64,000 nt of DNA. It comes from a candidate division WS6 bacterium OLB20. GTDB taxonomy: Bacteria > Patescibacteriota > Dojkabacteria > B142 > OLB20. The notes beneath the pieces were generated by a model. It did not search any database. It worked only from the letters and a program-made list of their open reading frames with translations, and had not been told where the DNA came from. Shown piece by piece: positions 27,988 to 46,134 of the stretch. The first letter of the stretch is position 1; each line of letters opens with the position of its first letter. The position numbers and the translations under genes are program-made. The DNA lies in contig JYNZ01000003.1 of the NCBI GenBank assembly GCA_001567355.1, forward strand, positions 402,263 through 466,262, read 5' to 3'.

Positions 27988-29427
27988 ATGATGAATATTG
28001 AAAACGAACTGGACGCAGCGAGGAAGAACGCCCTCCGCTACATAATCACCACGCAGAAAAAAGACGGCTCATGGAGCGGTCCTTATAGTTCGCGTCTAAG
28101 AGAGACTGTGCTCGCTAACCTTATAGCAAAAATTGCTGGTTGGAAAGAGATCTCGCAAGCTACAGAGACGTGGATTAATGAGCATCCTGAGCCATTCGGG
28201 GTTTCAGAACTTGAACTGGCTTTAAATACTGCGCTTTTGGATATTCTTCGCCGGAAGTCTCTATTGATACCACATGAGCAATTCATGCAACGTGATCTGG
28301 TAAGGAAGTATTTGATGATTTACGCAATAGGAATCCTGTTAAATATCAACTTCCCTACCGATACACAGCAGCTGGTTGCAAAAATACTTACAAGGATTGA
28401 AGAGGAATTGAAAGCGAATACTACACTTAAGCCATGGGCACGTTCAGAGTTTCTCAGTTTCCTAATAATCTGCTGTGACAGAGACGACTTGATTGAAGAA
28501 CTACTTAAACTTGAGGGAGACAGTGGAAGCTGGTTTAACAACACGGCTACAACTGCGATAGCACTGCTTTCCATATCGAGGCACCAACGTATTCAGTTTA
28601 ACTCGTACTATCAATTCTTTAAAGAAAATATGCAGCAGGACGGCGGTTACTCGTATGCACCTATTGAGAACTGGGATACAGGACTTACCCTTCAAATTCT
28701 TGCCGAACAACCTGATCAGGATGATATTATTTCTAAAGCGATTAGTTATCTGGAACTAAGTCAGAATCCAGATGGCGGATGGGGTTTTACTAAAGCCACA
28801 CCATCAGAATCAGATACAACAAGTATTGTTGTAAGAGCCTTGCAGATCCTTGGTGAAGATAGACTTAAGTCAAAGGCGTTAAATTTCTTGAAGTCAGTTC
28901 AATTTACTACTGGTGAATACAAAGGCTTGTGGCCAGTATGGGATCAAAGCGAAATGCCGAGTATCGAGGTGGTAGCTCATGTAGCAGAAGTATTTAGCCA
29001 CGAGGGATTTGACGTTTCCCATGCAGTATCGTGGCTCACTAATAAAGTTTTAACTGACTCCTGGATGCCAGTCTGGGGTAGAAGTTCTGCTTACGCTGCT
29101 TCGGCAATTCTAGCAACTATTGGAAATAAACGAGCAAGATCGATAATTTGCAAACACATTCTGAGCACACAGCTTAAAGATGGAGGATGGCCCAGTGTAC
29201 ACGGCGAATCAAGCAATGCGAGTGCAACAGGTAATGCCTTAGCCGCTCTTAGACTACTGGACAGCCCCGAACAGAAAATCAAGAGATCTGGTATGGAGTA
29301 CCTGATCAGAAACCAGCTGGAAAACGGAACCTGGCCAGAAGTCAGAGAGGTTGTAGGCCCACGGCCATACTCATACAGCGATCAGATGTCGACACACTAC
29401 TTTGCATTGAATCCCTTACTATTATGA
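27988..29427 (+). CDS. Prenyltransferase/squalene-oxidase (QW) repeat protein; class-II terpene-cyclase-like alpha/alpha barrel.
   Basis: 479 aa with at least 5 QW-type repeats (QKKDGSWSG, QQDGGYSY, QNPDGGWGF, QLKDGGWPS, QLENGTWPE) and a DRDD tetrapeptide. It sits divergent from the polyprenyl synthase. Local GC is lower than the window average. Confidence 0.6.
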   Translation: MMNIENELDAARKNALRYIITTQKKDGSWSGPYSSRLRETVLANLIAKIAGWKEISQATETWINEHPEPFGVSELELALNTALLDILRRKSLLIPHEQFMQRDLVRKYLMIYAIGILLNINFPTDTQQLVAKILTRIEEELKANTTLKPWARSEFLSFLIICCDRDDLIEELLKLEGDSGSWFNNTATTAIALLSISRHQRIQFNSYYQFFKENMQQDGGYSYAPIENWDTGLTLQILAEQPDQDDIISKAISYLELSQNPDGGWGFTKATPSESDTTSIVVRALQILGEDRLKSKALNFLKSVQFTTGEYKGLWPVWDQSEMPSIEVVAHVAEVFSHEGFDVSHAVSWLTNKVLTDSWMPVWGRSSAYAASAILATIGNKRARSIICKHILSTQLKDGGWPSVHGESSNASATGNALAALRLLDSPEQKIKRSGMEYLIRNQLENGTWPEVREVVGPRPYSYSDQMSTHYFALNPLLL

Positions 29428-30152
29428 AATTAGTGCGACTGCTTATAAACTCGGTATTAAAGCATCCATTTGCTGCGTTGAAACTTATTTCTCTCAGACC
29501 ATCCGAAGTATCACTCAAACGCTTCCTGTCTGTTTTTGTTACAGCGTCAATAGCCGCACCCAAAAACAGCTTCTACTCCAAAGATATAGTTAGGCTTTGC
29601 CAACTAACACTAATACCTTTCATCATTGATAGCAAACTCGATGAGTCCAACTATTTTCGATTTGGAGTTGATCTAGCAATTGAAAAACTTCAGAAGGATC
29701 TAGAAGTTCGCATTAATGACTTGAAGCTCAGCCAAGAGGAGACTCAAGTTGTCAACAAAGAGATAAGAAACTTAATCGCACATGACTTTTTAGCTAATGA
29801 ATCAGATACTATATCTTCATATCTAATGCACTCAACTTATACAATCGGATTAATATTTGTTACCAGGTCTTTAACGTCTGTTCATCAAGATGAATACGAT
29901 TTAGGCTTTCTAATCGAGTGTTCTAAACTTATTAGATACCTTAGTGATCGCGCAACTATCGAGAAAGATAAATCTGAGAAGAGGAATAATCTATCCAACT
30001 ACATTAATAAACAAGAAATCAATCATAGAATTTATACTTCTTCGAAAAAAATCGAGCAATACAAGATAACTTCGGTGACAGAGCAATTTCTGTACAACAT
30101 TGCAAAATTGAGCCTCATTTTCTATAAGAACAAAGACTTTGAGTACGTATGA
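29424..30152 (+). CDS. Hypothetical all-alpha protein (242 aa), encoded in AT-rich DNA. Its start overlaps the upstream stop by 4 nt.
   Basis: ORF with an ATGA overlap to the QW-repeat gene. No TM. I could not confirm canonical DDxxD or NSE/DTE terpene synthase motifs. Confidence 0.45.
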   Translation: MKLVRLLINSVLKHPFAALKLISLRPSEVSLKRFLSVFVTASIAAPKNSFYSKDIVRLCQLTLIPFIIDSKLDESNYFRFGVDLAIEKLQKDLEVRINDLKLSQEETQVVNKEIRNLIAHDFLANESDTISSYLMHSTYTIGLIFVTRSLTSVHQDEYDLGFLIECSKLIRYLSDRATIEKDKSEKRNNLSNYINKQEINHRIYTSSKKIEQYKITSVTEQFLYNIAKLSLIFYKNKDFEYV

Positions 30153-32140
30153 TATTTGGAAATAGAAAAAAGAAGCCAGCAGGTACACCTGCCCGTAAAC
30201 TGCTTGATGCTAATCTATTAGCTAGTCAGCTTGATGCTGTTCAGGCCGTCTCAAGTGTTCTTATCAAGCAAACAGACCTTGACGAGACCCTTTCTGTCAT
30301 AGTCAATCAGCTCGGTGAGAAGCTCCACTATATAAACCCTGTTATCTATCTCTTAAATGACTCACGTTCCTCTATCTCGGTTCGGAAGGTGAATGTCCCC
30401 AAAGCTATTGTCGCTCTAACAAATAGAATAGTTGGCAAGTCAGTATATGATGTCAACTTTGATCTAGATTCAAACAATACCCTTGCGAAAGCAATTCGCA
30501 GTAGCGAGATTCAAATATCCGATGACTTCTCAGAGGTTTTTCATCCCTATCTGAATAGTTTTGCTGCAAAGACGATCCAAACAGCATTAAATATAAAACG
30601 AGTTATCATTTCTCCAATTAAGGTCGATGATGTGCCGATCGGATGTCTATCAATCGGATCACGAAGTGATGAGGTTGAATCGTCAGAAATAACCACCTTA
30701 CAAACATTTTCTGCACAAATTAGTATTGCGATATATAATTCTCAACAGTTTGAAAATATAGCCCAACAGAAGAACAACCTCGAATCCCTCTTCAACCTCA
30801 CCAGCTCTATCAGTCAGACACTTGACCCGAACAAGGTTACGCAGACTGCTGTCAACACGATCCCGATGAACGATGAGCTGGTAGGGATAACTGTATCGAC
30901 ATATGATCCGGATACAAAACTTATTGTCCCGCAGGCTACCACCCAGGGCGACCTTGCCAGACGCGCTGAAGAGGTGATCGGTTCATTCAAACAGTATGCA
31001 CTTGATCTGTCCAACCCTGATCACCGCTCCAACATGATAGTGCAGACAATCAAAGACGGCACACCGAAGGAAAGCGACCACCTGTCTTCAGTTGTCAGTC
31101 CTGTCATGCCAAAGGCTCTGGTTGACGGACTCAACCGGCTGCTCAAGATCAACAAGGTCATCGCCTACCCCCTGCAATCCCGTGGCGAGCCTATAGGCGT
31201 CATTGTGTTTTACATGCGGCTCAAGGAAGAGAACGCCTTTACACCTGAAAAACAGCAGCTGTTTGAGACATATGCATCCCAGATCAGCATTGCACTTGAA
31301 AACGCACTTCTGTACACACAATCAGAAGAGATCACACAGAACCTGCGCGAAGCCAGACGTCGCGAACGTGATATGGTCGATGTCATGGGACACGAGCTGC
31401 GAACACCGATTTCTATTGTGCGCAATGCCCTGCTGACCCTCGAAAAAGACTACCAGGAGGATAACAAGGTCGAAGATCAGGAGAAGCTGGGTAAATACCT
31501 ATCCATGGCAATCGAGTCCACCAAACGAGAGGTCCGGCTGATTGAGACCATGCTTTCTGCCACTAAAGTTGAGGGGAACAAGATTCAGCTTGATTTCGGC
31601 AAGGTTGATATGCTGGATGTGATAGATGATGCTATTGAGGCATTAAAGCCACTTGCAGATGATAAGAATCTGCCTATTGTCTACGCCCGGCCACAGGTCG
31701 ACTATTTTGCGTACGCTGATCGAGTGCGTACACAGGAGATCATGGATAATATTCTCAGCAATGGCATCAAGTATACAGCCAGCGGTGAGGTGCGAATAAG
31801 TATCCGCAAAGACAAAGGGAAGATCTGGGTTGATGTTTCCGATACAGGTATAGGATTACACGAGGAAGACAAGGCACAGCTTGGTAAAAAGTTCTTCCGG
31901 GCTAAAGCGATGTTCAGCGATAAACCCGGCGTGGTTCAGCCAAGCGGCACAGGTCTGGGACTGTTTGTCACCTTCAACCTGATAGAGCTTATGAACGGTG
32001 ATAAGACCATTAAGAGCGAACCCGGCAATGGCTCAGTCTTCAGCTTTGGCCTGCCGGAGTTTACCGGTCAGAAGGAGCAGCATCTGCAGGAGGCGATGCT
32101 TGGCAAAACTTCAAAGCCAGCTGACGCCCGATCTGACTGA
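30149..32140 (+). CDS. Cytoplasmic sensor histidine kinase with tandem GAF domains; paralogue of the 23590..25977 kinase core.
   Basis: No TM. Two GAF-like regions. H-box MGHELRTPISIVRNAL. HATPase boxes LSNGIKYT, DTGIGL, GTGLGL. The kinase core is ~65% identical in protein to the other HK. No adjacent response regulator. Confidence 0.85.
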   Translation: MIFGNRKKKPAGTPARKLLDANLLASQLDAVQAVSSVLIKQTDLDETLSVIVNQLGEKLHYINPVIYLLNDSRSSISVRKVNVPKAIVALTNRIVGKSVYDVNFDLDSNNTLAKAIRSSEIQISDDFSEVFHPYLNSFAAKTIQTALNIKRVIISPIKVDDVPIGCLSIGSRSDEVESSEITTLQTFSAQISIAIYNSQQFENIAQQKNNLESLFNLTSSISQTLDPNKVTQTAVNTIPMNDELVGITVSTYDPDTKLIVPQATTQGDLARRAEEVIGSFKQYALDLSNPDHRSNMIVQTIKDGTPKESDHLSSVVSPVMPKALVDGLNRLLKINKVIAYPLQSRGEPIGVIVFYMRLKEENAFTPEKQQLFETYASQISIALENALLYTQSEEITQNLREARRRERDMVDVMGHELRTPISIVRNALLTLEKDYQEDNKVEDQEKLGKYLSMAIESTKREVRLIETMLSATKVEGNKIQLDFGKVDMLDVIDDAIEALKPLADDKNLPIVYARPQVDYFAYADRVRTQEIMDNILSNGIKYTASGEVRISIRKDKGKIWVDVSDTGIGLHEEDKAQLGKKFFRAKAMFSDKPGVVQPSGTGLGLFVTFNLIELMNGDKTIKSEPGNGSVFSFGLPEFTGQKEQHLQEAMLGKTSKPADARSD

Positions 32141-32837
32141 CAAATTCCTCCATCAACGGCATCTCAGCATCAAAGGTTCTTTTCTCTAGATGGGTAAAGT
32201 AAACAGCTCCGTAAACCTTTGCCTCGTATAGAATTGGTAACCCTGCGGAGTAACGCGACTTACTGAATTTCTGCATTAGTTCTGTAAAATTTCTACTCAT
32301 CGCTCCTACAGTGAAATTGTAGTTATAATCCGAATAGTATTTCTTTTTTTCTTTTACAACCCTGACTAAATAGTTATCGGGATGTTCAGTGAGCGACACG
32401 GACAAACTTGTTAGGTTTTTTCCCAACCTTCCGATCGTGATCAATGCCAGATTAGTTCTGCTGAAAGCACTGACTCGTAATCTGTCTCCATCCACAAGCA
32501 GCAATACTACAATAGAAAATCCCAGCACTTTTGCCACCTCATCAACGGCGTATTGTAGTAGCTCATCCGTATTCAGTATTCCTTCCAGATTATTTATTAT
32601 ATTCAACAGCTTTGAGGGCGTATCAAACACAATCCCGAATAGATCACCAAGCTCTAAATCTGACAAGCTGAGATGATCAGCGATTTTGAGTATAGTCTCC
32701 TTCGTAGGATTATTTACACCGTTCTCTATCCGCGACAGACTCCCCGGCGACGCGCCAATCGCCATCTCAAGGTCAAGCTGGCTTACACCCGCACGTTTGC
32801 GGTAGGTCCTGATTTTATCGCCGACTGATTCGCTCAT
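32061..32837 (-). CDS. XRE-family HTH transcription regulator fused to a GAF-like sensor domain.
   Basis: N-terminal YRKRAGVSQLDLEMAIGASPGSLSRIENG is a Cro/C1-type HTH. The C-terminal ~180 aa are GAF-like. The 3' end overlaps the convergent HK 3' end by ~80 nt, so one of the two ends may be shorter. Confidence 0.65.
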   Translation of the reverse strand: MSESVGDKIRTYRKRAGVSQLDLEMAIGASPGSLSRIENGVNNPTKETILKIADHLSLSDLELGDLFGIVFDTPSKLLNIINNLEGILNTDELLQYAVDEVAKVLGFSIVVLLLVDGDRLRVSAFSRTNLALITIGRLGKNLTSLSVSLTEHPDNYLVRVVKEKKKYYSDYNYNFTVGAMSRNFTELMQKFSKSRYSAGLPILYEAKVYGAVYFTHLEKRTFDAEMPLMEEFVSQIGRQLALKFCQASPPADAAPSDR

Positions 32838-33618
32838 GGTTAAGTTTGAATAACTCCTCCTTTGAAAGTAATTTTAGTAATCCCCTGATCATATCTGCGA
32901 TCTGCTTCATCATTTTCTCAAGTGCTCTGGCTTCGTTCTGATTAAACGATGCGAGCGATTCCTTCCGTGCGATAGTGAGTGCCCCATACACAGTATTCTC
33001 ATCAGCAATCGGTAACGCAATAAAGGATTTAAGCCCGATTGTGCTTGCAATCAGTTTGCACTGCATCTTCGTAAGCGGTGGCGAAGCAAAATCTGAAAGT
33101 ACTTCACCAGTAAACATCCTGTTTTCATCAACACATTGTTTGGTATATGTATCAAGGTTATCCAGACTCTGTGGGTTGAACGACAATTGATCCAGAATGT
33201 ATTTAAAAGCAAAATCCACTGCCGGACCGGTCGAGAAGTATCGCAGGTGAAGTGCATTCAGATCCTGATCAAAATAGGAGAATGCTATACCTTTGTATCC
33301 AAGCTTGTTTTGAATCTCAGTCAACTTCTCTCCGAGAGCGTAATCCACGACTTTACCCGAAAGCATTGCCCGTATGCCCTGCAGTGAGTCTTCAAACTGT
33401 TCGATGGAGAGATCTATATCAAAGAGTCCGGCTGTTTCAACCGCGTCAAGCTTCAGTACATCTGCAATATTGAGAAGCGTCTCTTTGGTCGGGTTAACAA
33501 TACCGTTCTCAATCCGCGACAGACTCCCCGGCGACGCGCCAATCGCCATCTCAAGGTCAAGCTGGCTTACACCCGCACGTTTGCGGTAATCACGGATAAT
33601 GCTGCCCAGATCATGCAT
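32815..33618 (-). CDS. XRE-family HTH plus GAF-like regulator; tandem paralogue of the previous gene.
   Basis: The first ~30 codons are identical at the DNA level to the neighbouring paralogue (about 85-bp repeat at 32720-32805 and 33500-33585). The C-terminal sensor domain has diverged. Confidence 0.65.
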   Translation of the reverse strand: MHDLGSIIRDYRKRAGVSQLDLEMAIGASPGSLSRIENGIVNPTKETLLNIADVLKLDAVETAGLFDIDLSIEQFEDSLQGIRAMLSGKVVDYALGEKLTEIQNKLGYKGIAFSYFDQDLNALHLRYFSTGPAVDFAFKYILDQLSFNPQSLDNLDTYTKQCVDENRMFTGEVLSDFASPPLTKMQCKLIASTIGLKSFIALPIADENTVYGALTIARKESLASFNQNEARALEKMMKQIADMIRGLLKLLSKEELFKLNHERISRR

Positions 33619-33694: not shown

Positions 33695-34375
33695 TTATTC
33701 TGCTACAGTGTTAACCACCTTCTCAACACATGCTGATGTTCTACAGTCGCATCGTATTGTATAACACTGAGGTTGGCCGGGATCAGGGCGCGTTGCAGGA
33801 CAAACCTGATATTCCTCGATATCGTCCGACGCTCCTGGATTGGAGCAGTTATTAGTACAGACAAATCGATCGTTCTCATTGCACGCGAGTACCTGCCCTA
33901 CATAGGAACCACCTGTACAGACCTGCGGGAAGAAGAACGTAAATCCGGGATCACGAAGGTTTTCATAGCAGCTTGCATCCTCGGCAATCAGCCCTTGCAT
34001 CAATGTTGCTGATATCGGGTATGCAAGAAAGTACAGGAGCAGACCGATAACCCACTGCCCTGCACGCTTTTTAGCGATCTCAACCTTGCTCTGGTCGCCG
34101 GCACTTGTCAGGTAGATTCCACCGATTACAACCAGCAGCACCATAAAGACAATGCCTCCAAACGCCCAGGCGGCATATATTACCCGGGTGACAAGATACT
34201 GCAGTTCACGGATTGTGGGTGGTTCGCAGGGTTCACTGCTCTCGAGGGAGCACGGCTCAGAGACCTGAGCCGATGCCGGCTCTGCTGAGATGAACAACGG
34301 CAGCACAACAACTATCAGTACAAGCAGTACCGGGTATGCACGCTTAATAAGTGTTGCAAACCGTTGCACAGTCAT
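33695..34375 (-). CDS. Pilin-like protein 1: signal peptide, two-helix hydrophobic hairpin (TrbC/VirB2-like topology), Cys-rich C-terminal ectodomain (12 Cys).
   Basis: Signal peptide ends ASAQ. Hairpin VIYAAWAFGGIVFMVLLVVIGGIYL - TSAGDQSKVEIAKKRAG - QWVIGLLLYFLAYPISA. The Cys-rich tail follows. Confidence 0.55.
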   Translation of the reverse strand: MTVQRFATLIKRAYPVLLVLIVVVLPLFISAEPASAQVSEPCSLESSEPCEPPTIRELQYLVTRVIYAAWAFGGIVFMVLLVVIGGIYLTSAGDQSKVEIAKKRAGQWVIGLLLYFLAYPISATLMQGLIAEDASCYENLRDPGFTFFFPQVCTGGSYVGQVLACNENDRFVCTNNCSNPGASDDIEEYQVCPATRPDPGQPQCYTIRCDCRTSACVEKVVNTVAE

Positions 34376-34935
34376 CAGTTTGTGATAGGATCGATGCAGT
34401 CCGGTTCTGTGATGTCATCCGGATCAGTTGCAGCCTGGTACAGCGCCTCACATGAATTACACAGAGCCTGACTGTCATCCACTTCACCGGTGCACGATCT
34501 GCAGCCCTCACTGTTAGGCGCGGACAGACATACCTGGTAAAGTGCCGGATCCGGTCTGTTGGCTCCAAAGAAGACAAAGACAAGAACAATACCGACAATT
34601 GCAATAAGCATCGCACCAATACCAAAAAAGATCGCCTGGATGGCTTTTTGCGCCTCCTCTATCTTACCGGCATCTCCCTGAGACTGGATATACTTAATAG
34701 CAGCCATGATCGCATATACCACAGCGATCAGGACAACTGCTCCAAGAGCAAGCACAAGTCCAAGCTGAATACGGCTGGTAACAAAACCCGAAGCACCGAT
34801 ACCTTCTTCTCCAAGCAGACCAAAGATGTCGCCTATCTGATCAGGCAGAAGACTCTGCGCCTGAACTGGCAGTATCATAGCTGCTCCAAGCAGAATCGAC
34901 AGAGATAAAAACGCTCCCGTTATGTACTTTTTCAT
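34375..34935 (-). CDS. Pilin-like protein 2 (copy A of the tandem triplication).
   Basis: Signal peptide (..VQAQ). Core QLGLVLALGAVVLIAVVYAIMAAIKYIQSQGDAGKIEEAQKAIQAIFFGIGAMLIAIVGIVLVFVFF is identical to copies B and C. Distinct Cys-containing C-terminal tail. Confidence 0.6.
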   Translation of the reverse strand: MKKYITGAFLSLSILLGAAMILPVQAQSLLPDQIGDIFGLLGEEGIGASGFVTSRIQLGLVLALGAVVLIAVVYAIMAAIKYIQSQGDAGKIEEAQKAIQAIFFGIGAMLIAIVGIVLVFVFFGANRPDPALYQVCLSAPNSEGCRSCTGEVDDSQALCNSCEALYQAATDPDDITEPDCIDPITN

Positions 34936-34953
34936 GCGAGATAAAAATAATTA

Positions 34954-35559
34954 TTAATTTTCTGCACAGATGCCACCGGCATAGTTGCGCAACGCTGTTG
35001 TAAGCTGAGAATATGACCAGTTGTCCTGCACCTGTGTCTCAAAAAACTCCTCACACTGACCGCAGGCTGTATTTGTTCGTGCTCCGCGGGTACCTGGATC
35101 TTCTCCTGCAAGGCACGACTCACAGCCTTCACTGTCCGGGGACGTCAGGCACACCTGGTAAAGTGCCGGATCCGGTCTGTTGGCTCCAAAGAAGACAAAG
35201 ACAAGAACAATACCGACAATTGCAATAAGCATCGCACCAATACCAAAAAAGATCGCCTGGATGGCTTTTTGCGCCTCCTCTATCTTACCGGCATCTCCCT
35301 GAGACTGGATATACTTAATAGCAGCCATGATCGCATATACCACAGCGATCAGGACGACCGCCCCAAGAGCAAGGACAAGTCCAAGCTGGATACGGCTGGT
35401 AACAAAACCTGCCGAGCCCGAACCGCCGGGTCCAAGCAGGTTGAAGATATCAGCTATCTGACCGGGCAGCAAGCTCTGAGCCTGAACGGTAGTTACACCT
35501 GTCAGCAGGAGCAGCATTGTGGTGGACAGAAGCAGAAGTTGTTTCGTCCGTCTGATCAT
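34954..35559 (-). CDS. Pilin-like protein 3 (copy B).
   Basis: Same hairpin core. About 200 bp are DNA-identical to copy A (34535-34733 vs 35155-35353). The tail differs (...CESCLAGEDPGTRGARTNTACGQCEEFF...). Confidence 0.6.
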   Translation of the reverse strand: MIRRTKQLLLLSTTMLLLLTGVTTVQAQSLLPGQIADIFNLLGPGGSGSAGFVTSRIQLGLVLALGAVVLIAVVYAIMAAIKYIQSQGDAGKIEEAQKAIQAIFFGIGAMLIAIVGIVLVFVFFGANRPDPALYQVCLTSPDSEGCESCLAGEDPGTRGARTNTACGQCEEFFETQVQDNWSYSQLTTALRNYAGGICAEN

Positions 35560-35564
35560 CGTGT

Positions 35565-36170
35565 TTAAGGCTCGTCACACTCATCTGGAATAGTCGTCCC
35601 GCTTGCCTCTGAGTCACAGTTGCTGCCGTTTCTGGCAAGACAGTCGTATGCAGCCTCACACTGACCGCACAATGTATTGGAATATGTTCCATCCGCATCT
35701 GTTGCAGCATCATTATTTAGACATGATTCACAGCCGGCGCTGTTAGGCGCGGACAGACATACCTGGTATAGAGCTGGATCAGGTCTGTTGGCTCCAAAGA
35801 AGACAAAGACAAGAACAATACCGACAATTGCGATAAGCATCGCACCAATACCAAAAAAGATCGCCTGGATGGCTTTTTGCGCCTCCTCAATCTTACCGGC
35901 ATCACCCTGGGACTGGATATATTTAATGGCAGCCATGATCGCATATACAACAGCGATCAGGACAACTGCTCCAAGAGCAAGCACAAGTCCGAGCTGAACA
36001 CGGCTGGTGACAAAGTTTGCAGACCCGGAACCTTCCGGTCCGAGCAGATTGAAGATGTCTCCTATCTGATCAGGCAGAAGACTTTGTGCAGATACTGCTG
36101 CAGGCATTGTCACAAACAGCACCAGAAAGAAGCTGAGTGCGCTGAAAACAAGAAACGATCGTTTGTTCAT
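35565..36170 (-). CDS. Pilin-like protein 4 (copy C).
   Basis: Same core with a few synonymous or near-synonymous changes. Different tail (...CESCLNNDAATDADGTYSNTLCGQCEAAYDCLARNGSNCDSEASG...). Confidence 0.6.
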   Translation of the reverse strand: MNKRSFLVFSALSFFLVLFVTMPAAVSAQSLLPDQIGDIFNLLGPEGSGSANFVTSRVQLGLVLALGAVVLIAVVYAIMAAIKYIQSQGDAGKIEEAQKAIQAIFFGIGAMLIAIVGIVLVFVFFGANRPDPALYQVCLSAPNSAGCESCLNNDAATDADGTYSNTLCGQCEAAYDCLARNGSNCDSEASGTTIPDECDEP

Positions 36171-36234
36171 GGCGTATGTAAAAAATGTTTAAACTCAGTC
36201 TAGTCTATTTGGCAGCTAATGTTAAGGTTTGCGC

Positions 36235-36789
36235 TTAAAGAAAAGTGTAGCTTAGGTTTTCGCAGCGGTCCTCAAATCTGAAAAACTCATTGAGCGGAAC
36301 ATCACTGACATCCAGATGGTCCCACTCCTGATCAGAACCCAGTCCGCCAGTTCTGCAGCACGCTATGGCATACTCTCTGCGCTCATCATCTGCGATCTCA
36401 GGTTGCATCTCCAGCTCAATGTAACGGAACTTGAACTCCGAATCAGCCCCTCCGCACTGTGCAAGATTGCTGCTCCATGAATAGATATCCCCCACTCCGG
36501 TAAACACTCCAATCAGCGACAGTACAATCAGAAACCCGAGAAACATGGCGATCCCGATCCAGATATTCTTGATCACTGTCATTCCACCCTGGATACCGTC
36601 CGGATTACCGGCGCTGGTGATAATTTTGATTCCTGCGTAGATGCTGAAGACAACCCAGACAACAAGCATCACCGAAAACAGAAGCGAGATAAACAGAGCG
36701 ATCACTGACAGGACGCCTCCGTTAAGCAGCCCCCCGACATTAGGGAGAAATAACGAGATACCGCCAATATCAACCTGACCAGTCAGCAT
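36235..36789 (-). CDS. Pilin-like protein 5. Hairpin core diverged. C-terminal Cys-containing acidic domain.
   Basis: 184 aa. Hairpin LSVIALFISLLFSVMLVVWVVFSIYAGIKIITSAGNPDGIQGGMTVIKNIWIGIAMFLGFLIVLSLIGVF. No clear cleavable signal peptide. Confidence 0.5.
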   Translation of the reverse strand: MLTGQVDIGGISLFLPNVGGLLNGGVLSVIALFISLLFSVMLVVWVVFSIYAGIKIITSAGNPDGIQGGMTVIKNIWIGIAMFLGFLIVLSLIGVFTGVGDIYSWSSNLAQCGGADSEFKFRYIELEMQPEIADDERREYAIACCRTGGLGSDQEWDHLDVSDVPLNEFFRFEDRCENLSYTFL

Positions 36790-36805
36790 AGTCGTTTTTT
36801 AAAAG

Positions 36806-37525
36806 TTAATCCCTGTATGGCTCCCAGCTGCCACCGCGGCAGATGTAATTACGAACCCCATCTACAGACGGGTCAGCATCGACATAACCGAATGATCCGT
36901 CGCCGCATGCCTCAGTCAGCTCTGCAGAAGTCAGTTCGAGCGGTACAAGATTAAAGTCAAACAGGTTCTGTGCCACGCCGAGCAGCATGGCGATTATCTG
37001 GATGATGAGTATCCCCATGGTTGAAACAACAACACCGATGATCGCGTTCTGGAATATTTTTGCAGATTCCTCCACCTTGTCCGGACTCTCACCCGCGGTT
37101 GTCCGCACCACCATACCGTATATCCCCATCACGATTGCGGCAACCGATATCACACCCATGACTGCGTAGAGGAACATCCTTATCAGACTCGGTATCGCAC
37201 GCTCAGGCGGACCGAAGTTGATACCGGCAAAATTGACATTGTCTTCAACCTCCGCAATTGCCTGCTCAACCTCTTTGCACTTGGAAGGATCTTCTTTTTC
37301 ACACCCCTCACCTGCCTCGATACATTTATACTGACACAGCAGACTGCACTCAGCCTGAGGATCAGTAAAGAGAAGCGCGGAACAGTTAGGATCGACAACC
37401 AGATCAGTGGGCTCGTTTGCGCTGTTGACATCAGTCGGCCTGTCAATAATTGTGCAGCCCACAGCAAACAGCAGCAGTGCTGCAGCAATACCAATTAGTT
37501 TGAAGTTAACCTTCATATCAGCCAC
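36806..37525 (-). CDS. Pilin-like lipoprotein 6: Cys-rich N-terminal domain, hairpin, then a C-terminal domain.
   Basis: Lipobox LLLFAVGC. Cys-rich block CSALLFTDPQAECSLLCQYKCIEAGEGCEKEDPSKC. Hairpin MFLYAVMGVISVAAIVMGIYGMVV...ESAKIFQNAIIGVVVSTMGILIIQIIAML. Confidence 0.5.
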   Translation of the reverse strand: MADMKVNFKLIGIAAALLLFAVGCTIIDRPTDVNSANEPTDLVVDPNCSALLFTDPQAECSLLCQYKCIEAGEGCEKEDPSKCKEVEQAIAEVEDNVNFAGINFGPPERAIPSLIRMFLYAVMGVISVAAIVMGIYGMVVRTTAGESPDKVEESAKIFQNAIIGVVVSTMGILIIQIIAMLLGVAQNLFDFNLVPLELTSAELTEACGDGSFGYVDADPSVDGVRNYICRGGSWEPYRD

Positions 37526-37898
37526 CGATCAGCTGCACACCAAACAGTGCGGAAATAATACCGACAACAACAGGTGCAACAAGAATGATAATAAATCCGA
37601 TTACGGCGAACGTGAGGATCTTTTTTGCCTGCGCCACTTTTTCGTCAGACCCGGCGGCAGTAAGGTATGTAAAACCGCCGTAGATAATCATTGCCAGAAA
37701 CGCAAGTGTCGCCACGGGTATGATAAATGCGCTCAGTGTCGAGAAAATTGACCCGATATCGCTGAACAGCGAGTTTAGCGGGTTCTGAATCGTATTCGGT
37801 CCGTCTGTAGCAGGTGTCGGAGAGGCCGCATTAACAGCACTTACACCAGCAGCAGCAAACAGTAAGATAGCGGCAAGAATGTTTGTGAGTACTTTCAT
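37518..37898 (-). CDS. Pilin-like protein 7 (minimal form). Start taken at MKVLTNIL; the ORF is open to 38024.
   Basis: Signal peptide MKVLTNILAAILLFAAAGVSAVNAA. Hairpin FIIPVATLAFLAMIIYGGFTYLTAAGSDEKVAQAKKILTFAVIGFIIILVAPVVVGII. No ectodomain. Confidence 0.5.
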   Translation of the reverse strand: MKVLTNILAAILLFAAAGVSAVNAASPTPATDGPNTIQNPLNSLFSDIGSIFSTLSAFIIPVATLAFLAMIIYGGFTYLTAAGSDEKVAQAKKILTFAVIGFIIILVAPVVVGIISALFGVQLIGG

Positions 37899-37941
37899 AC
37901 TACCTAGAGTAGCAGACAGAAACGGTGGCAGCAATACTCTG

Positions 37942-39135
37942 CTATTGCAGGAAGTCCAACGGCAGAATGCCGAGAACATTAATACCCAGAAACCGCAGGA
38001 TGACAACAGCGCCAAGTAGTACAATCAGGGCAATAATTGCTGAACTGACAATCTCTTTTGCCTCACGGATCTGCTCGGGATTATCAGTTTGCATCATAAT
38101 GGCTGCCTGGATAAAGCGCAGGATCATGACACCGCCGATTATACCGATACCGATTTGAAACAGCCTGGTTACTATCCCGTTGAGTGATACATCCCAGCAG
38201 CCAAGAGCGTTCCACACAAAGAAACCCTCATCCGCCTCATCGAGATTGCGGGCCACACAGGCGCGACACTGTGTACGCTCCTCCGCATTTTCTTCCGGAA
38301 TATTATCACACCCTTTACTCAACTCACCGGCATCAGGATCTATCGGAGCCGACGCATCTACCAGATTGCCATCTACGCATCTTCTCGTTGCATCGTTCGG
38401 GTCAAGCTCATTGTTGTTGATACAGTAGGCTCCGTTTGCCTCACACGCTGATTCTGATTCAAACGTCTCGGCGGGGTTCATGCGGTCACCATTGAGTACT
38501 CGGCAGTTTCCTCCGCCACCGCACCACCAGAGGGTTTCTGTTTCAATTAAATGGTTTGACCCTTCAAGCCCCCAGATGCTGCTGAGGTCACGATCCTGCT
38601 CTGCGGGTACTGAACTGTTATCTGGACGATAACACTTTCCATCACTATCACTGACGATGCTGTCGTTCGGATCCGGACAGCACAAAAGATCATACGTCAG
38701 GTGAATACCCTGGGGCTGAAGAATGAGATTCGGATGAGACTCGGGACAACACCTGGCTGCACCTCCATACGCCAGGAGCCCGGATGGACTCTTGTCAGCT
38801 ACATATCCATCAAAACATACGTTAAATACCCAGCCGCCCGCATGACTCCAGACCGAATTTACTTCTGTGATATTGCTCAATGCGCAGTGTCTGTTGCCTT
38901 CCACAATGATATTCCGTTCTTCAGAGGAGTTTAAATCATCTGCAAAAAGGTTATTCTCAAGAAAATAATCACCCAGAGGACCAAGCGTTGATGACGGACA
39001 CATGTTCTCGTCACTCACACAACCTGCAGCCAGCGCCTGTGATGATGTAAGGACTGCGACAACGAACACGACTGAAGATACGATAAGGAGCTTCAACGCA
39101 ATCCCTTGAAGGGAGAGTTTATGACCTGACAACAT
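37942..39135 (-). CDS. Pilin-like protein 8: large Cys-rich extracellular domain (~300 aa, ~30 Cys) fused to a C-terminal hairpin module.
   Basis: Signal peptide ..SSQALAAG. Many CxxC/CC pairs. C-terminal LFQIGIGIIGGVMILRFIQAAIMMQTDNPEQIREAKEIVSSAIIALIVLLGAVVILRFL. The ORF is open to 39171, overlapping the 3' end of the Clp-like gene. Confidence 0.55.
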   Translation of the reverse strand: MLSGHKLSLQGIALKLLIVSSVVFVVAVLTSSQALAAGCVSDENMCPSSTLGPLGDYFLENNLFADDLNSSEERNIIVEGNRHCALSNITEVNSVWSHAGGWVFNVCFDGYVADKSPSGLLAYGGAARCCPESHPNLILQPQGIHLTYDLLCCPDPNDSIVSDSDGKCYRPDNSSVPAEQDRDLSSIWGLEGSNHLIETETLWWCGGGGNCRVLNGDRMNPAETFESESACEANGAYCINNNELDPNDATRRCVDGNLVDASAPIDPDAGELSKGCDNIPEENAEERTQCRACVARNLDEADEGFFVWNALGCWDVSLNGIVTRLFQIGIGIIGGVMILRFIQAAIMMQTDNPEQIREAKEIVSSAIIALIVLLGAVVILRFLGINVLGILPLDFLQ

Positions 39136-41449
39136 CAATTTTCTCCAGCGAAGTAATATGCAGTCTGTCACCGTAATCCAGATTGCCGGCGACGATCAGT
39201 TTAGCGATCTTGTTTTCGACCTCGTCCTGAATCACACGTCGAAGTTCGCGAGCGCCGTAGACCGGGTTGTAACCTTTTCGGGCAAGTTCTTCGAGCAGCT
39301 GCGGCGTGTAGGTCAGAGTTATACCTTTCTCTTCCAGTGTTTTAGCCTGCTTCTGCATCATTATCTCAGCGACTTTTTGCACCTCAAGCGGTACAAGCGG
39401 TCTGAATAGAATCACTTTATCAAATCTGTTGAGGAATTCAACGCGCAGGTACTTTGCCAGGATCGGCTGCACCTGTTTTCTGATCTGCTCGTATGGTGTT
39501 CCCCTGGTGGTCAGTTCTGATATCTCGCGGGTACCAACGTTTGAGGTGGCAATAATTATGGTATTGGTAAAATCAACCTTTCTGCCCAGGCCGTCGGTCA
39601 TGCTTCCCTCGTCCAGCACCTGCAGAAACAGGTCCAGTACGCGGGGATTAGCCTTCTCGATCTCGTCAAGCAGCAGGAGCGAGTACGGACGGTTGCGCAC
39701 AGCCTCGGTCAGATAGCCTCCTTCAAACCGGCCGTCGACAGACTTGCCGATCAGGCGGTCAAGATTTGTCTCCTCCTGATACTCAGACATATCGAGCCGG
39801 ATCATCAGTTTTTCGTCTCCGTAGTAAACCGCGGTCAGTGCCTTTGAAAGCTCTGTTTTACCGACACCGGTAGGACCAAAAAACAGAAACGTGGCGATCG
39901 GACGCTTGCCGCTGACAAGTCCAGCCCTGGATCTGCGCATTGCATCAGCAACAGCCTGGACTGCCTCTGTCTGACCGATCAGCCGCTGGTGCAGTTTTTC
40001 CTCCAGATTAACAAGCAGCTCGGACTCGCGGCTGTCGATCGCACCAACTTTGACACCCACCTTGGCAGAGATCACCTCTTCAATCAGCTGCTCGTTAGCA
40101 AACTCAAGTCCTCTACTGCGAGCACTGACCATAACCTCTTCGAGCAGATCGATTCCTTTGTCGGGCAGCACTTTTTCAAAGGCAAACGTATGCGAGAGTT
40201 TTACCAGCCGCACAAGCGCATCAAAACTGACACGAACACCGTAGCGCAGCTCCATCGCGGGCAGCACATCCATCAGAATCTGAACTGCTACAGGGTCTGA
40301 TGGCTCTTTAACCTCAACCAGTTTAAATGATGATGCCAGACCACGTTCTGTCTTGATCTTCTGGTTGTAGCCTTCGGGAGTTGAGACGGCAATCACGCGC
40401 AGATGATAACGGTCCATTGCGCTGACGATAAGATTGACGACTTCGGATGCGATCTCTCTGCGGATGTTAAGCACCTGGTCAAAATCATCAAGGACCAGAA
40501 TGATATTGCCTGCCGACGCTGTCTCCTCAAGTACATTCTGTACACGGGACTTGAACACCTCAACGGTCGGCGCCAGTGAAAACGCCCGGTTAAAATCAAA
40601 TGCCACAAGACGCTTGTCACGAAGTATCGGTGGAACGTCCTCTACCACCATGCGTGTCGCGAGACTGTTCACAAGCGTTGTACGGCCGACTCCGGGCTGA
40701 CCCACTAGCAGTACAGCGCTGGCATCACCCTCCTCAAGATAACTGATCACCTGGTTCAGCTCACCCTCGCGTGCAATCGAGTATGTAAAGTCACCCTTAA
40801 CTGTTTCGGCAGTGAAATCGCGCTGAAACTGAACGAGCACCGGTGAGTATCGTGATGTAAACGCCCTGTTGACTGTAGAAACGGGCTTCAGTGCACGTTT
40901 GGCGTAGAACTCGTCCTTATAGCGTCTGATATCACTTTTATTTTTAAGCCACATACCAAGCGCCTCAACCTCATCCGGCAGAACATTTACACTCTTAAGC
41001 TCCTGCGCAAGGGGCTTCTGCATCAGAAAGAGGAAAAACGCCATCTCATCCACACTGTTAAGGCGCAGATCGTATGACAGCTGAAACGTACTGATCAGCA
41101 CCTGAACAAGCCATGAGTCGATGTGAGTATCGCTTGCCAGGTTGTGCTTTGCCGCCAGTTCAAGCAGCGACCGCTTTTCGAGGCCAAGACGGGCAGCCGC
41201 TTTCTGCACATTGGCATAGCGCAGCACCTCGTGTATCAGCAGTGTCAGAAAGTCCTGCTCACCTGTCCCGGCCAGATCATCAAGAACATTAAGCAGATCA
41301 TGATCTATATACTCCGTTATTTCGATCTCTTCGGGAAGATTACCCTGATTGATCTGTTCTCTAAGTCCCGAAAGCTTTTTCAGTCGCAGAGTATCGACAA
41401 ACAGTGCACGGTTGCGTCTGAGAAACATTGCATACAGATACAGCAGCAC
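39119..41449 (-). CDS. ClpC/ClpB-family Hsp100 AAA+ ATPase with two nucleotide-binding domains and a non-canonical ~230-aa N-terminal region.
   Basis: D1 LLVGQPGVGRTTLVNSLA with IILVLDDFD. D2 FLFFGPTGVGKTELSKAL, LLLLDEIEKANPRVLDLFLQVLDEGSMTD, sensor-2 GARELRRVI. The N-terminus lacks recognisable Clp_N repeats. The annotated start is GTG, immediately after the C6 run at 41451-41456. Confidence 0.85.
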   Translation of the reverse strand: MLLYLYAMFLRRNRALFVDTLRLKKLSGLREQINQGNLPEEIEITEYIDHDLLNVLDDLAGTGEQDFLTLLIHEVLRYANVQKAAARLGLEKRSLLELAAKHNLASDTHIDSWLVQVLISTFQLSYDLRLNSVDEMAFFLFLMQKPLAQELKSVNVLPDEVEALGMWLKNKSDIRRYKDEFYAKRALKPVSTVNRAFTSRYSPVLVQFQRDFTAETVKGDFTYSIAREGELNQVISYLEEGDASAVLLVGQPGVGRTTLVNSLATRMVVEDVPPILRDKRLVAFDFNRAFSLAPTVEVFKSRVQNVLEETASAGNIILVLDDFDQVLNIRREIASEVVNLIVSAMDRYHLRVIAVSTPEGYNQKIKTERGLASSFKLVEVKEPSDPVAVQILMDVLPAMELRYGVRVSFDALVRLVKLSHTFAFEKVLPDKGIDLLEEVMVSARSRGLEFANEQLIEEVISAKVGVKVGAIDSRESELLVNLEEKLHQRLIGQTEAVQAVADAMRRSRAGLVSGKRPIATFLFFGPTGVGKTELSKALTAVYYGDEKLMIRLDMSEYQEETNLDRLIGKSVDGRFEGGYLTEAVRNRPYSLLLLDEIEKANPRVLDLFLQVLDEGSMTDGLGRKVDFTNTIIIATSNVGTREISELTTRGTPYEQIRKQVQPILAKYLRVEFLNRFDKVILFRPLVPLEVQKVAEIMMQKQAKTLEEKGITLTYTPQLLEELARKGYNPVYGARELRRVIQDEVENKIAKLIVAGNLDYGDRLHITSLEKIDVVRS

Positions 41450-41706
41450 TCCCCCCAGAAAACCGCATCAGCAATTCGATCCGGATTGAGCACCTCAAAC
41501 GGCAGAAACCTCCCCTGAAGAAAATCGTACGCCAGCAGCGATCCCAGGGTCAGCAGAAGAACCGCCATCAACAGACGTGACAGTGCTTTCTCCGCTGTTT
41601 CTGTCTCACGTCTGAGGCCATGCTCCTTAAACAGATAGTCCCAGTTCAGGGTTAGCGGCACCCCCTTAAACATTCCTACTGTTTCCTTGCCCTTACGTAA
41701 TCGCAT
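41380..41706 (-). CDS. Small ORF. It may be the 5' extension of the Clp-like gene (a TM-containing N-terminus) if one G is missing from the G6 run; otherwise a small membrane protein.
   Basis: 108 aa with TM LLMAVLLLTLGSLLAY. Inserting one G into the G6 run fuses it in frame to the Clp ORF (AVFWGGVLLYLYAMFLRRNR...). Confidence 0.3.
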   Translation of the reverse strand: MRLRKGKETVGMFKGVPLTLNWDYLFKEHGLRRETETAEKALSRLLMAVLLLTLGSLLAYDFLQGRFLPFEVLNPDRIADAVFWGECCCICMQCFSDATVHCLSILCD

Positions 41707-42064: not shown

Positions 42065-43834
42065 GTGGCAGTCATGCATATTCATGGGTACAGTGGTATA
42101 ATCAGCTGCCAAGTAAAACGCGCCATGAAGAACCTGAAACGCAACCTGCACAAGTATGCAACCGAGATTTATTTTCTTGCGCTGTCGCTGATCATCTTTG
42201 TTCCCCTGCTTCGGCCCGGGTACGTTCTTACGCTGGATCTGATCTTTACACCCCGGATGCATTACCAGTACACCAATTCGCACGGTCTCTACAGCGAGAC
42301 TGCTCGTGATGCCGTTCTTAATCTGCTTGCGAGGATCGTCGATGCCAGTGTGATAGAAAAGCTTCTTCTGATGCTGCTGTTTTTCTGTATCGGTTACTTT
42401 ATGTACCGGTTTCTGCTGCAGCTGCGCAAACGCAACCGCAGTTATGCGATTGTTGCCGCAACGCTGTATATGTGGAATCCGTTCACTTACTCGCGTCTTC
42501 TTGCCGGTCACTGGGCATTTTTATGCGGCTACGCGCTGCTGCCTGTCTTTATGTGGGGACTGCATCACTTCTACCGCCAGAAAAAAATCTCCAACAGACT
42601 GCTGATCGCCTGCTCGGTATCATGGTTTGTGGCAAGCCTTGTCAGTGTTCATTTTCTGCTGCTGTTTGCAGTACCGTTTGCTGTATATACAGTACTGCAC
42701 ATGTTCACCTATGTGCGCTGGGACCGGACTGCAGCCCGTGCCGTAGCTCTGCTGGCATTTATCACGCTGTTTTCACTCAGCTGGATTGTACCCTCGCTTC
42801 TGATAAGCGATGTATCACGCCTGGGTCCGCTGCATCTGATCTTTTTCGCTCCCACTCCCGACCTTCAGTACGGTCTTACCTTTAATCTGCTCAGCATGTA
42901 CGGTTTCTGGGCCGAGAGCACCATCGGCACCATGCCAAAGGAGCTGATCACCGTCTGGCCCCTTCTGACACTGGTTCTGTTAATCATTGTTGCGGCTCCG
43001 CTGATCCGTGCAGGCGGTGATCTGCTTGCCATCAAGAAAAACAAATCCTACAGCAGGACACAGCGTCTGCTGATCGGATCCCTGTTTATCACCGGACTGC
43101 TTGGACTCGTTCTTGCGCATGGCTCTACAGGGTTTATGCAGCCTGTCTGGGATTACCTCTACAATACCGTTCCGGTTCTGCAGCCGTTCCGTGAAGTACA
43201 GAAGTTTCTGCTGCTGTACGTGTTTGCAGCAACCGTTCTGTTCTATTATGGCCTTGACGCTGTTGCCGACCTGATCAGGGAGGGGGTACGTTCTGTCCGG
43301 TCGCGCTTTACAATTGATGCAGAACGGATCACCGCCTTTTCGGGTCTGATACTCGTAATCCTGATTACACCATTGCTTGGTTTTGCCGCTGCAGGGCAAC
43401 TGCAGACAACACAGTATCCCCGGTCCTGGTACCAGCTTGAGGAGGAGCTTACAGAGCGCGCGACCGAGGGGCGTATTCTGGTACTGCCGTGGCGCGCCTA
43501 TGCCGAGTTTCCGTTCAGCAGCAGACAGATTGCTGACCCGTCACGGTCATTTTTCAGCGGTTATGTAATCAGTGAACGTGTTCCGGCCTATCTGCGCTCA
43601 ACCATCGAATGCGAAATTGAATTTACAGAAATTCACCGCAACGAAGTGATCCGCCTCTGCCTCGGCAGTGACTCTGACAAGCAGGACTGGATCAGCCAGG
43701 TCAAACTTAACAGCATCGATTATGTCGTCTTCAACAAAGTTCAGGCCTTCAAGGTTAATGACTTCTTTAATGATGAGGAACACTTTCAACTCATCTATTC
43801 GGATAACTATGCGGATATCTACCGGGTGTTATAA
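42065..43834 (+). CDS. Polytopic integral membrane protein, GT-C-type glycosyltransferase-like (YfhO/PMT-like topology). The true start is probably the Met at 42125.
   Basis: At least 11 TM helices. First extracytoplasmic loop has acidic residues (TLDLIF...SETARDAV). Blocks TLDLI, LYMWNPFTYSRLLAGHWAFLCGYALLPVFMWGL align to the N-terminal domain of the 49001..52660 paralogue. Confidence 0.55.
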   Translation: MAVMHIHGYSGIISCQVKRAMKNLKRNLHKYATEIYFLALSLIIFVPLLRPGYVLTLDLIFTPRMHYQYTNSHGLYSETARDAVLNLLARIVDASVIEKLLLMLLFFCIGYFMYRFLLQLRKRNRSYAIVAATLYMWNPFTYSRLLAGHWAFLCGYALLPVFMWGLHHFYRQKKISNRLLIACSVSWFVASLVSVHFLLLFAVPFAVYTVLHMFTYVRWDRTAARAVALLAFITLFSLSWIVPSLLISDVSRLGPLHLIFFAPTPDLQYGLTFNLLSMYGFWAESTIGTMPKELITVWPLLTLVLLIIVAAPLIRAGGDLLAIKKNKSYSRTQRLLIGSLFITGLLGLVLAHGSTGFMQPVWDYLYNTVPVLQPFREVQKFLLLYVFAATVLFYYGLDAVADLIREGVRSVRSRFTIDAERITAFSGLILVILITPLLGFAAAGQLQTTQYPRSWYQLEEELTERATEGRILVLPWRAYAEFPFSSRQIADPSRSFFSGYVISERVPAYLRSTIECEIEFTEIHRNEVIRLCLGSDSDKQDWISQVKLNSIDYVVFNKVQAFKVNDFFNDEEHFQLIYSDNYADIYRVL

Positions 43835-43853
43835 TTGCTGAAACACTGGAGCC

Positions 43854-44132
43854 GTGAGCGAACAACTTGCGACATACCATATCGGCAGACTTCTTGCGCA
43901 GGAGGCGTTTTCAGAACGCAACTCCACATATCCGGGTACGATCATGGCAATTACACCACTTGAGGTAAGCGCCAGAAAGCTTGCCGGAGAAGCCTCCGAG
44001 TGGGGAGTCAGTCTTGAGCACTACAGCGGATTTATCCCTTACATTGATGTAGAGTTCCGGGTCGCTGCAGCATACTATCTTGCAATTATGTTGCGGGACA
44101 GATACGGGGACACTTCTCCGCACTCATTCTGA
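43854..44132 (+). CDS. Small hypothetical protein (92 aa).
   Basis: ORF only. It fills the gap between the GT-C-like gene and the TP-rich protein gene on the same strand. Confidence 0.3.
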   Translation: MSEQLATYHIGRLLAQEAFSERNSTYPGTIMAITPLEVSARKLAGEASEWGVSLEHYSGFIPYIDVEFRVAAAYYLAIMLRDRYGDTSPHSF

Positions 44133-46116: not shown

Positions 46117-46134
46117 TTATTTATTTATTAATTT

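Follow-up and report, generated by a model that had tools for sequence, protein, structure and literature searches.

Probable core-restricted gene conversion among old tandem paralogues in a VirB2-like hairpin gene array of a Dojkabacteria bacterium

Patescibacteria carry tandem arrays of VirB2-like pilin genes, which have been described with 2–11 genes in 383 assemblies and with a mean identity of 25% and a maximum of 54% (PMC12102498). The six-gene array of Southlakia is essential for epibiotic growth, its members being alike in structure and divergent in sequence, and comparable arrays lie within an essential type IV secretion system (T4SS) cluster in Saccharibacteria (PMC10633639, PMC12857230). 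Here, we analyzed such an array in a 64,000-nt stretch of the genome of candidate division WS6 bacterium OLB20 (Dojkabacteria; Patescibacteria/candidate phyla radiation, CPR; assembly GCA_001567355.1, contig JYNZ01000003.1, positions 402,263 to 466,262), referred to below as the window, and all positions are those of the window unless a related locus is named. Eight consecutive minus-strand genes (33695..39171), which constitute a tandem array by the criterion of PMC12102498, fill six distinct slots of a conserved operon, and slot 5 is occupied by three tandem genes, termed copies A, B and C. Our results point to old slot-5 paralogues whose shared hairpin core has been overwritten by gene conversion and whose tails, probably displayed outside the cell, continue to diverge, a combined explanation to which we would assign a probability of about 60%.

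The OLB20 array resembles the published patescibacterial arrays in consisting of tandem genes for small PF18895/VirB2-like proteins with a signal peptide and a two-helix hairpin, located on the chromosome of an ultra-small monoderm, and its six distinct slots parallel the six members of the Southlakia array. It departs from them in that the triplet proteins are 68–74% identical overall (100% over ~80 aa), against a published maximum of 54%, whereas the remaining array members are as divergent as published. It also differs in that slot 5 carries a six-cysteine (6-Cys) domain, and in that the array follows a membrane-anchored Clp-like ATPase instead of lying next to virB4. Gene conversion in patescibacterial arrays is not mentioned in PMC12102498, and the Clp-like ATPase goes unmentioned in the Patescibacteria T4SS survey.

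According to PMC2883598, which cites Nystedt et al. (2008; Mol Biol Evol 25:287), the VirB2 homologue trwL of Bartonella is tandemly amplified, diversified and subject to recombination and concerted evolution, trwJ is amplified as well, and the role proposed for trwL is the binding of polymorphic host surfaces. The triplet shares with trwL a copy number that varies between species, recombination or concerted evolution, faster-evolving parts presumed to lie at the surface, and probable co-expression; the two marks of trwL-type concerted evolution, a segment of low synonymous divergence and phylogenetic incongruence along the gene, were both found in the triplet. In contrast, Bartonella, a diderm alphaproteobacterium, carries a complete R388-like T4SS in the same locus and has the mammalian erythrocyte as its host, its TrwL lacks a Cys-rich C-terminal domain, and function there was shown genetically, whereas any function of the OLB20 triplet is a prediction from sequence. 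The virB2 paralogues of Anaplasma phagocytophilum and A. marginale (PMC3556328) are likewise tandem (8–15 paralogues), with a conserved signal peptide and two helices, hypervariability near the N and C termini and a copy number that differs by strain. Anaplasma is, however, an obligate intracellular diderm, its paralogues have no 6-Cys domain, and the text consulted in PMC3556328 reports no segmental core identity at the DNA level. Both VirB2-like arrays in Patescibacteria and amplified VirB2 genes that diversify while evolving in concert (Bartonella trwL) were thus already known; particular to the triplet are a 6-Cys subfamily invisible to Pfam, apparent conversion tracts restricted to the core, copy-number variation at a single slot, and linkage to a Clp-like ATPase instead of VirB4.

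The three genes of the original prediction, which fill slot 5, were all found as open reading frames (ORFs) on the minus strand at exactly the coordinates given. Copy C (35565..36170; 201 aa; TR69_WS6001000807), the first of the three to be transcribed, comprises a signal peptide (36087-36170), an N segment (35997-36086), the hairpin core (35796-35996) and a Cys-rich tail (35568-35795; 8 Cys), and its protein is identical to the OLB20 entry of that locus tag, which is encoded on a contig of 744,746 bp. Copy B (34954..35559; 201 aa; TR69_WS6001000806) starts 5 nt past the copy C stop and is built in the same order (signal peptide 35479-35559, N segment 35389-35478, core 35188-35388, tail 34957-35187 with 6 Cys). 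Copy A (34375..34935; 186 aa; TR69_WS6001000805) starts 18 nt past copy B (signal peptide 34858-34935, N segment 34768-34857, core 34567-34767, tail 34378-34566 with 6 Cys), and its stop overlaps the ATG of the following gene by 1 nt.

At the DNA level, a repeat finder returned one direct-repeat family of 3 × 300 nt, located at 34492-34791 (copy A, the reference), 35113-35412 (copy B, 93% identity) and 35721..36020 (−) (copy C, 91% identity), with spacings of 621 and 608 nt. Within it, a 203-nt minus-strand tract is 100% identical between copies A (34532..34734) and B (35153..35355), slightly extending the predicted 34535-34733 and 35155-35353, and this tract is the most recent of the putative conversion tracts. 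Copy C differs from copies A and B by 8–12 changes in the 70-codon core, all of them synonymous. A 50-mer from the core occurred exactly three times in the window (0 expected from shuffles), with no additional core copies within the 64 kb, and Tandem Repeats Finder returned nothing because the ~615-nt unit exceeds its longest period of 500 nt. Outside the core, the signal peptides share 32–43% nt identity, which is the random level, and the N segment that follows them shares 71–77% nt and ~80% protein identity (QSLLPDQIGDIFNLLGPEGSGSA.FVTSR). The tails, at 41–47% nt identity, are not alignable as DNA, yet have a common cysteine framework. The region after the signal peptide and the C-terminal tails had both been predicted to be unrelated between copies, which these comparisons contradict: only the signal peptides are at random level, and the tails are homologous through the conserved 6-Cys scaffold.

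Synonymous divergence distinguishes the core from the segments on either side of it. The proportions of synonymous and nonsynonymous differences (pS and pN, respectively) were derived from Nei-Gojobori counts on a codon alignment. Between copies A and B, pS was 0.08 in the core (70 codons), 0.53 in the N segment and 0.57 in the post-helix segment (Fisher test of core vs flanks, p = 9e-7); the corresponding values were 0.15, 0.39 and 0.58 between A and C (p = 2e-3), and 0.23, 0.65 and 0.89 between B and C (p = 8e-7), with a core pN = 0 in each comparison. Flank pS within the triplet, 3–10 times the core value, equals that between OLB20 and other species (0.43–0.8). The core itself reaches a pS of 0.67–0.89 between species and is thus synonymously saturated, so that constraint at the codon or RNA level does not lie behind its identity within the genome. 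Purifying selection alone, keeping the core identical without any recombination, could draw on the ~90% amino acid identity of the core protein between species, and on two copies in the related locus L024 that encode near-identical proteins at a pS of 0.38–0.84. Selection at the protein level, however, leaves synonymous differences, and the same codons that differ at 0.67–0.89 between species differ at only 0.08–0.23 within the genome; in addition, 67 consecutive codons are identical between copies A and B, a run with P<1e-5 in a shuffle test on third codon positions. We regard selection without recombination as hardly credible.

Along the gene, site patterns proved to be mosaic (chi2 = 30.4, p = 1.8e-4). 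In the initial portion of the N segment and directly past the core, copies A and C group against B, whereas A and B group against C within the core. For both its N-terminal part and its tail, copy A has its closest match in the single-copy orthologue P0006 of locus L028, while its core is 100% identical in protein to that of its own paralogues; this signal of phylogenetic incongruence is clear for copy A and weak for copies B and C. The original prediction had seen in the near-identical three-copy repeat a recent tandem triplication, and although the repeat itself is borne out, its recency is not. A recent triplication followed by very fast divergence of the ends, with a core too young to have changed, would account for the near-identity of the core, and the closest relatives found (L028 and L029) have a single slot-5 gene, such that the extra copies could be lineage-specific. 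A young duplication would nevertheless give a similar pS throughout, whereas flank pS (0.39–0.89) is about that between species (0.43–0.8), at or near saturation, site patterns change along the gene, and the signal peptides are at random-level identity; we consider such an origin quite unlikely, and the paralogues appear to be about as old as the species split, with only the core young. Together, a young core, flanks at between-species divergence and mosaic site patterns argue for gene conversion and not recent triplication. Judging from these patterns (pS 0.08–0.23 in the core vs 0.39–0.89 in the flanks, with the run and mosaic tests above), it is very likely that repeated gene conversion, restricted to the hairpin core, homogenized this part of the old paralogues, and in this respect the predicted role of gene conversion holds.

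The same signature was observed in copies 1–3 of a related locus (L009, JBAXHO010000012; core pS 0–0.25, flanks 0.14–0.61), core-specific homogenization was likewise seen in L024, and a weaker form in L003. The original prediction had also pointed to a hazard of assembly collapse; the recurrence in independent assemblies (L009 and L024) argues for a biological pattern rather than an assembly artefact. A mis-assembly, multi-mapped short reads during polishing, or a wrong copy number could in principle have produced an identical tract, since the sequence comes from a metagenome-assembled genome, exact repeats of 203 nt are a recognized hazard, and an apparent frameshift in the adjacent Clp-like gene signals that the assembly is not error-free. 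The three copies nonetheless differ in signal peptide and tail and all have intact reading frames, copy C differs by scattered, purely synonymous changes not expected from an artefact, and the pattern recurs in the assemblies of other projects, so that we judge an artefactual origin very improbable.

Gene conversion among pilin gene copies is also a feature of Neisseria pilE/pilS, in which a constant part of the pilin is combined with a C-terminal part that varies and is flanked by cysteines. The Neisseria proteins are type IV pilins unrelated to VirB2, and there silent, promoterless, 5'-truncated donors move the variable part into a single expression locus. In OLB20, by contrast, all three copies are complete, and the apparently converted part is the constant core. 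A pilS-like silent cassette system was ruled out, as every copy has a start codon, a signal peptide and an intact frame within one operon.

The encoded preproteins consist, in order, of a classical Sec signal peptide (26–28 aa, with an A-x-A cleavage site, ending VSA|Q or VQA|Q), the conserved N segment of ~30 aa, two hydrophobic helices, and an acidic Cys-rich C-terminal domain. The hydrophobic stretches (~53-87 and ~97-131) are joined by the loop KYIQSQGDAGKIEEAQKA (KYIQSQGDxGKIEEAQKA), the most conserved stretch family-wide, in which S87, G89, D90, A97 and K99 are invariant. A type IV pilin was ruled out, there being a Sec leader and two hydrophobic helices instead of a short Gly-ending leader with F/M-x-x-x-E, and no profile support was obtained for a holin-like protein or for 'fumarate reductase subunit D' and DUF4190, the last two being labels on some homologues. 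In an AlphaFold2 (AF2) model, helices 50-87 and 91-126 form a hairpin, and the tail has a predicted local distance difference test score (pLDDT) >90; modelled alone, the tail reached a pLDDT of 81 and a predicted template modelling score (pTM) of 0.70. Fold searches returned matches to generic helical hairpins only. The acidic tail is 63–77 residues long in the window copies (60–75 aa as a general description), and across distinct family members exactly six tail cysteines were present in 88 of 96 and no cysteine lay outside the tail in 90 of 96. By analogy with VirB2 topology, and given the cleaved signal peptide, both termini would be extracytoplasmic and the loop cytoplasmic, with the six cysteines possibly paired into three disulfides in a knob on the outer side. 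One relative (P0091) has a single hairpin followed by four tandem repeats of the 6-Cys knob, which identifies the tail as an autonomous module. Among other fusion-protein relatives, which include P0227, two (P0220 and P0221) contain 4–6 complete hairpin units per polypeptide.

The tails evolve faster than the core, in agreement with the predicted arrangement of a conserved hairpin with variable ends: between window copies, pN/pS was 0.57–0.68 in the tails and 0.00 in the core. Between presumed orthologues across species, tail pN/pS was 0.45–0.71, and in the least saturated pair (L009_1/2) it was 0.96, with core values of 0.00–0.08. The tails are accordingly either under much weaker constraint or diversifying, and relaxed constraint fits these ratios as well as diversifying selection does. 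A distinct 'type 1' tail occurs in the first slot-5 copy of some related loci (L003_1, L004_1, L005_1, L006_1 and L008_1), where it coexists with variable-tail copies and ends ...GEQIQFNNLC[QR]; the OLB20 lineage seems to be without a type-1 slot-5 copy.

The same operon was present in 23/23 fetched genome loci and in four metagenome loci, with the order ~860-aa Clp-like ATPase, ~400-aa pilin-like protein, ~120-aa T4SS_pilin, two paralogues, the slot-5 family and a last paralogue. The number of slot-5 genes differs among related genomes, bearing out the copy-number variation raised in the original prediction, with a range of 1–4: one copy in L001, L007, L010, L011, L028 and L029, two in L002, L004, L005 and L006, three in the window, and four in L003 and L009. 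L008 has two copies plus a 93-aa slot-5 fragment (9998-10279 of that locus) that lies between the two full copies and is possibly a remnant of unequal crossing-over. Other slots are duplicated at times, namely slot 2 in L009 (6567-7280), L025 (5288-6044) and L028 (3035-3742), and slot 1 in L011 (3785-6233).

About 100 homologues of the triplet proteins were found, nearly all on Dojkabacteria-like metagenome contigs and annotated as hypothetical or left without a name, and an exhaustive profile search of 1.84 billion cluster representatives matched 65 clusters at E<1e-30, a number that rose to 206 at E<1e-10 and to 1679 at E<1e-3. These searches place the triplet proteins in a small subfamily that is restricted to its lineage and lies on the margin of a larger superfamily, which by its profile matches is Pfam PF18895 (T4SS_pilin). 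PF18895 was matched at E<0.01 by 20 of 52 family members (best 6.8e-7) and by 3 of 10 distant relatives, and directly by four array neighbours (8e-10 to 2.3e-5), slot 4 being reached only through the family hidden Markov model (HMM). All three triplet proteins show the VirB2/TrbC-type layout of a small protein with a signal peptide and two hydrophobic helices separated by a short polar loop. A search of PDB sequences with the family profile gave chance matches only, and plasmid sequences gave no blastn match to the triplet.

In our explanation, slot 5 of this conserved operon, which encodes a Clp-like ATPase and six VirB2/TrbC-like hairpin proteins, has been filled by old tandem paralogues, and the sequence comparisons indicate that homologous recombination (gene conversion, probably also unequal crossing-over) repeatedly overwrites the ~200–300-nt hairpin core. 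Such repeated overwriting accounts for the one core shared by the copies within a genome, and the signal peptides and tails, lying outside the tracts, keep diverging. The identical core may let every variant join the same membrane or polymer assembly, with the 6-Cys tail forming a disulfide-bonded knob displayed outside, such that one scaffold could carry three different knobs, plausibly serving to contact a host cell or some other surface. A similar role has been proposed for other amplified sets of VirB2 paralogues. Exposure at the surface and a host-related diversification of the tails, which the original prediction read as antigenic or receptor-specificity variation, are made plausible by topology and by analogy, and we advance them tentatively, as somewhat less probable than not taken together; the slot-5 tail is the best candidate for a specificity determinant.

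Several results weigh against this explanation. With tail pN/pS at or below 0.96 in all comparisons, hence never above 1, and pS approaching saturation, diversifying selection is not demonstrated and positive selection on the tails cannot be claimed. The type-1 tail is conserved (pN/pS 0.10–0.14 in the first slot-5 copy of L003, L004, L005, L006 and L008), and the family therefore has both fixed and variable tails. The triplet proteins fall below the Pfam threshold (best PF18895/PF04956 E = 0.7), and their profile-profile match to a canonical neighbour is weak (hhalign E = 4e-4, probability 34%); as only family members and neighbours match, homology to VirB2-type proteins is supported only transitively. 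Finally, domain searches of the large ORFs across the 64-kb window gave no VirB4, VirB6 or VirB3.

The first of these points would suit a dosage amplification with neutral drift of the tails, in which the slot-5 protein is the most abundant subunit, additional copies increase its output, conversion is a by-product of tandem identity, and the tails vary through weak constraint and not for any benefit of variety. Tail ratios of at most 1, the 5- and 18-nt gaps within one operon and hence probable co-expression, and a copy number free to vary from 1 to 4 among relatives are all compatible with such an amplification. Set against it are the 6-Cys scaffold and acidic character kept in 88 of 96 members together with a tail that folds confidently in prediction, which imply a functional tail rather than junk, and the strong conservation of type-1 tails; moreover, whole-gene conversion would be expected, yet tract boundaries lie at the core edges in three independent lineages. 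We consider dosage with drift to be rather unlikely, although it is a serious contender. The weak Pfam matches and the absence of nearby VirB4, VirB6 and VirB3 genes are in line with a different proposal, namely that these are not pilus subunits but hairpin proteins of a heteromeric membrane complex with the Clp-like ATPase, the PF18895 label reflecting a shared two-helix hairpin only. Six distinct paralogues in fixed order across classes suggest a defined complex, not interchangeable pilins, the predicted cytoplasmic loop is the most conserved part, and the Clp-like ATPase is membrane-anchored with a gene that overlaps the first array gene. Slot 2, however, scores above the PF18895 threshold and matches a pilin-like conjugation protein of a Mycoplasma integrative and conjugative element (ICE), the last array member weakly matches TrbC/VirB2, and comparable arrays lie in the Saccharibacteria T4SS cluster. 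A non-pilus complex is in our estimate unlikely, though far from negligible.

If the combined explanation of old paralogues, a converted core and diverging displayed tails is correct, the locus has implications for how such arrays evolve. Patescibacteria live attached to other microbes, and VirB2-like arrays belong to the small number of gene sets with a demonstrated essential role in this way of life (in Southlakia). With one of six slots amplified, its core held together by recombination and its outer domain diversifying, the OLB20 array would amount to a natural experiment on array evolution; were the tails merely unconstrained, the triplet would represent ordinary concerted evolution in a tandem gene family. 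As the triplet lies below Pfam thresholds, an HMM-based census would miss such members and underestimate within-array similarity. That the array is invariably paired with a membrane-anchored Clp-like ATPase, and not with VirB4, points to a candidate assembly partner. A more speculative proposal, which we think doubtful, is that the operon encodes a self-contained, VirB4-independent surface-filament or membrane machine, in which the Clp-like unfoldase, translationally coupled to the six hairpin proteins, would extract or re-insert hairpin subunits for retraction and building, and slot 5 would supply an exchangeable host-recognition subunit. The operon is present in all related loci inspected, which span Dojkabacteria and adjacent CPR classes, and no slot other than slot 5 combines a 6-Cys knob whose fold is unmatched with multi-copy variants maintained by apparent conversion.

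The Clp/Hsp100-like double AAA+ ATPase gene (39119..41706, −) lies directly upstream of the array. It is apparently frameshifted near 41450, the first ~85 codons (~41452-41706) being in another frame, so that the ORF 39119..41449 lacks the N-terminal ~85 aa; a sequencing or assembly error or a pseudogene could account for this. Its orthologues are ~860 aa long and have Walker A motifs at ~335 and ~610 as well as two hydrophobic helices near the N terminus, and the protein scores 483 bits against the ClpB equivalog model, for which the cut-off is 1232. In every related locus (L001, 4496-7075; L002-L029), the ATPase gene directly precedes the array and mostly overlaps the first array gene by a few nt.

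Slot 1 (37942..39171, −) encodes a large pilin-like protein with a C-terminal PF18895 hairpin (E = 1.3e-5), and its probable start, an ATG at 39135, overlaps the end of the Clp-like gene. Slot 2 (37518..38024, −) is a canonical small T4SS_pilin (PF18895, E = 8e-10; NCBIfam NF045849, Mycoplasma ICE pilin-like, 1.2e-8), whose true start is probably an internal ATG, as orthologues are ~120 aa long. Slot 3 (36806..37525, −) encodes a pilin-like protein of 239 aa (PF18895, E = 1.1e-5), and slot 4 (36235..36789, −) a pilin-like paralogue of 184 aa that is the nearest relative of the triplet in the array (family HMM, E = 8e-10) and has orthologues in all related loci. The last array member (33695..34375, −), of 226 aa, matches PF18895 (E = 2.3e-5) and PF04956 TrbC/VirB2 (E = 0.006) and has a Cys-rich C-terminal part. 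A promoter and terminator scan gave results at or below chance, and the weak -35/-10 match upstream of copy C (36225-36197) is not evidence of a promoter.

Directly downstream of the array, two tandem paralogous regulators with HTH_3 and GAF domains (32815..33618 and 32061..32837, −) overlap each other by 23 nt and are convergent with a double-GAF histidine kinase gene (30149..32140, +). An HTH-GAF regulator and a GAF histidine kinase are often found downstream of the array in related loci, and from this placement the HTH-GAF and histidine kinase genes are candidate regulators of the array. At a distance of 22 kb, the window also contains a lone ATPase of the type IV coupling protein (T4CP) kind (8984..11551, −; 855 aa; TrwB/TraD/VirD4-like, membrane-anchored), which has no adjoining T4SS genes and is followed by a Pro/Gln-rich 178-aa ORF and SmpB. 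In L016-L020, homologues of this ATPase are located 7–8 kb away from the array. The 64-kb window yielded no relaxase gene.

Divergent from the Clp-pilin operon, a run of genes at 42065..52660 (+) encodes very large membrane or surface proteins, namely a GT-C/AftD-like protein of 589 aa, an unknown protein of 627 aa, a DUF11 protein of 939 aa and a Wzy_C/GT-C-like protein of 1219 aa; the GT-C-like gene is also conserved upstream of the Clp-like gene in L001 and L002. Elsewhere in the window, a squalene-hopene-cyclase/prenyltransferase-like alpha-alpha toroid protein (27988..29427, +) is encoded close to a polyprenyl synthetase (26736..27632); the genome is one from which only minimal lipid biosynthesis would be expected. 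There are two tRNA-Met genes (1785-1860 and 4047-4119), and a tRNA-Ile gene with the unusual anticodon TAT (5729-5801) adjoins a tyrosine recombinase gene (4723..5604).

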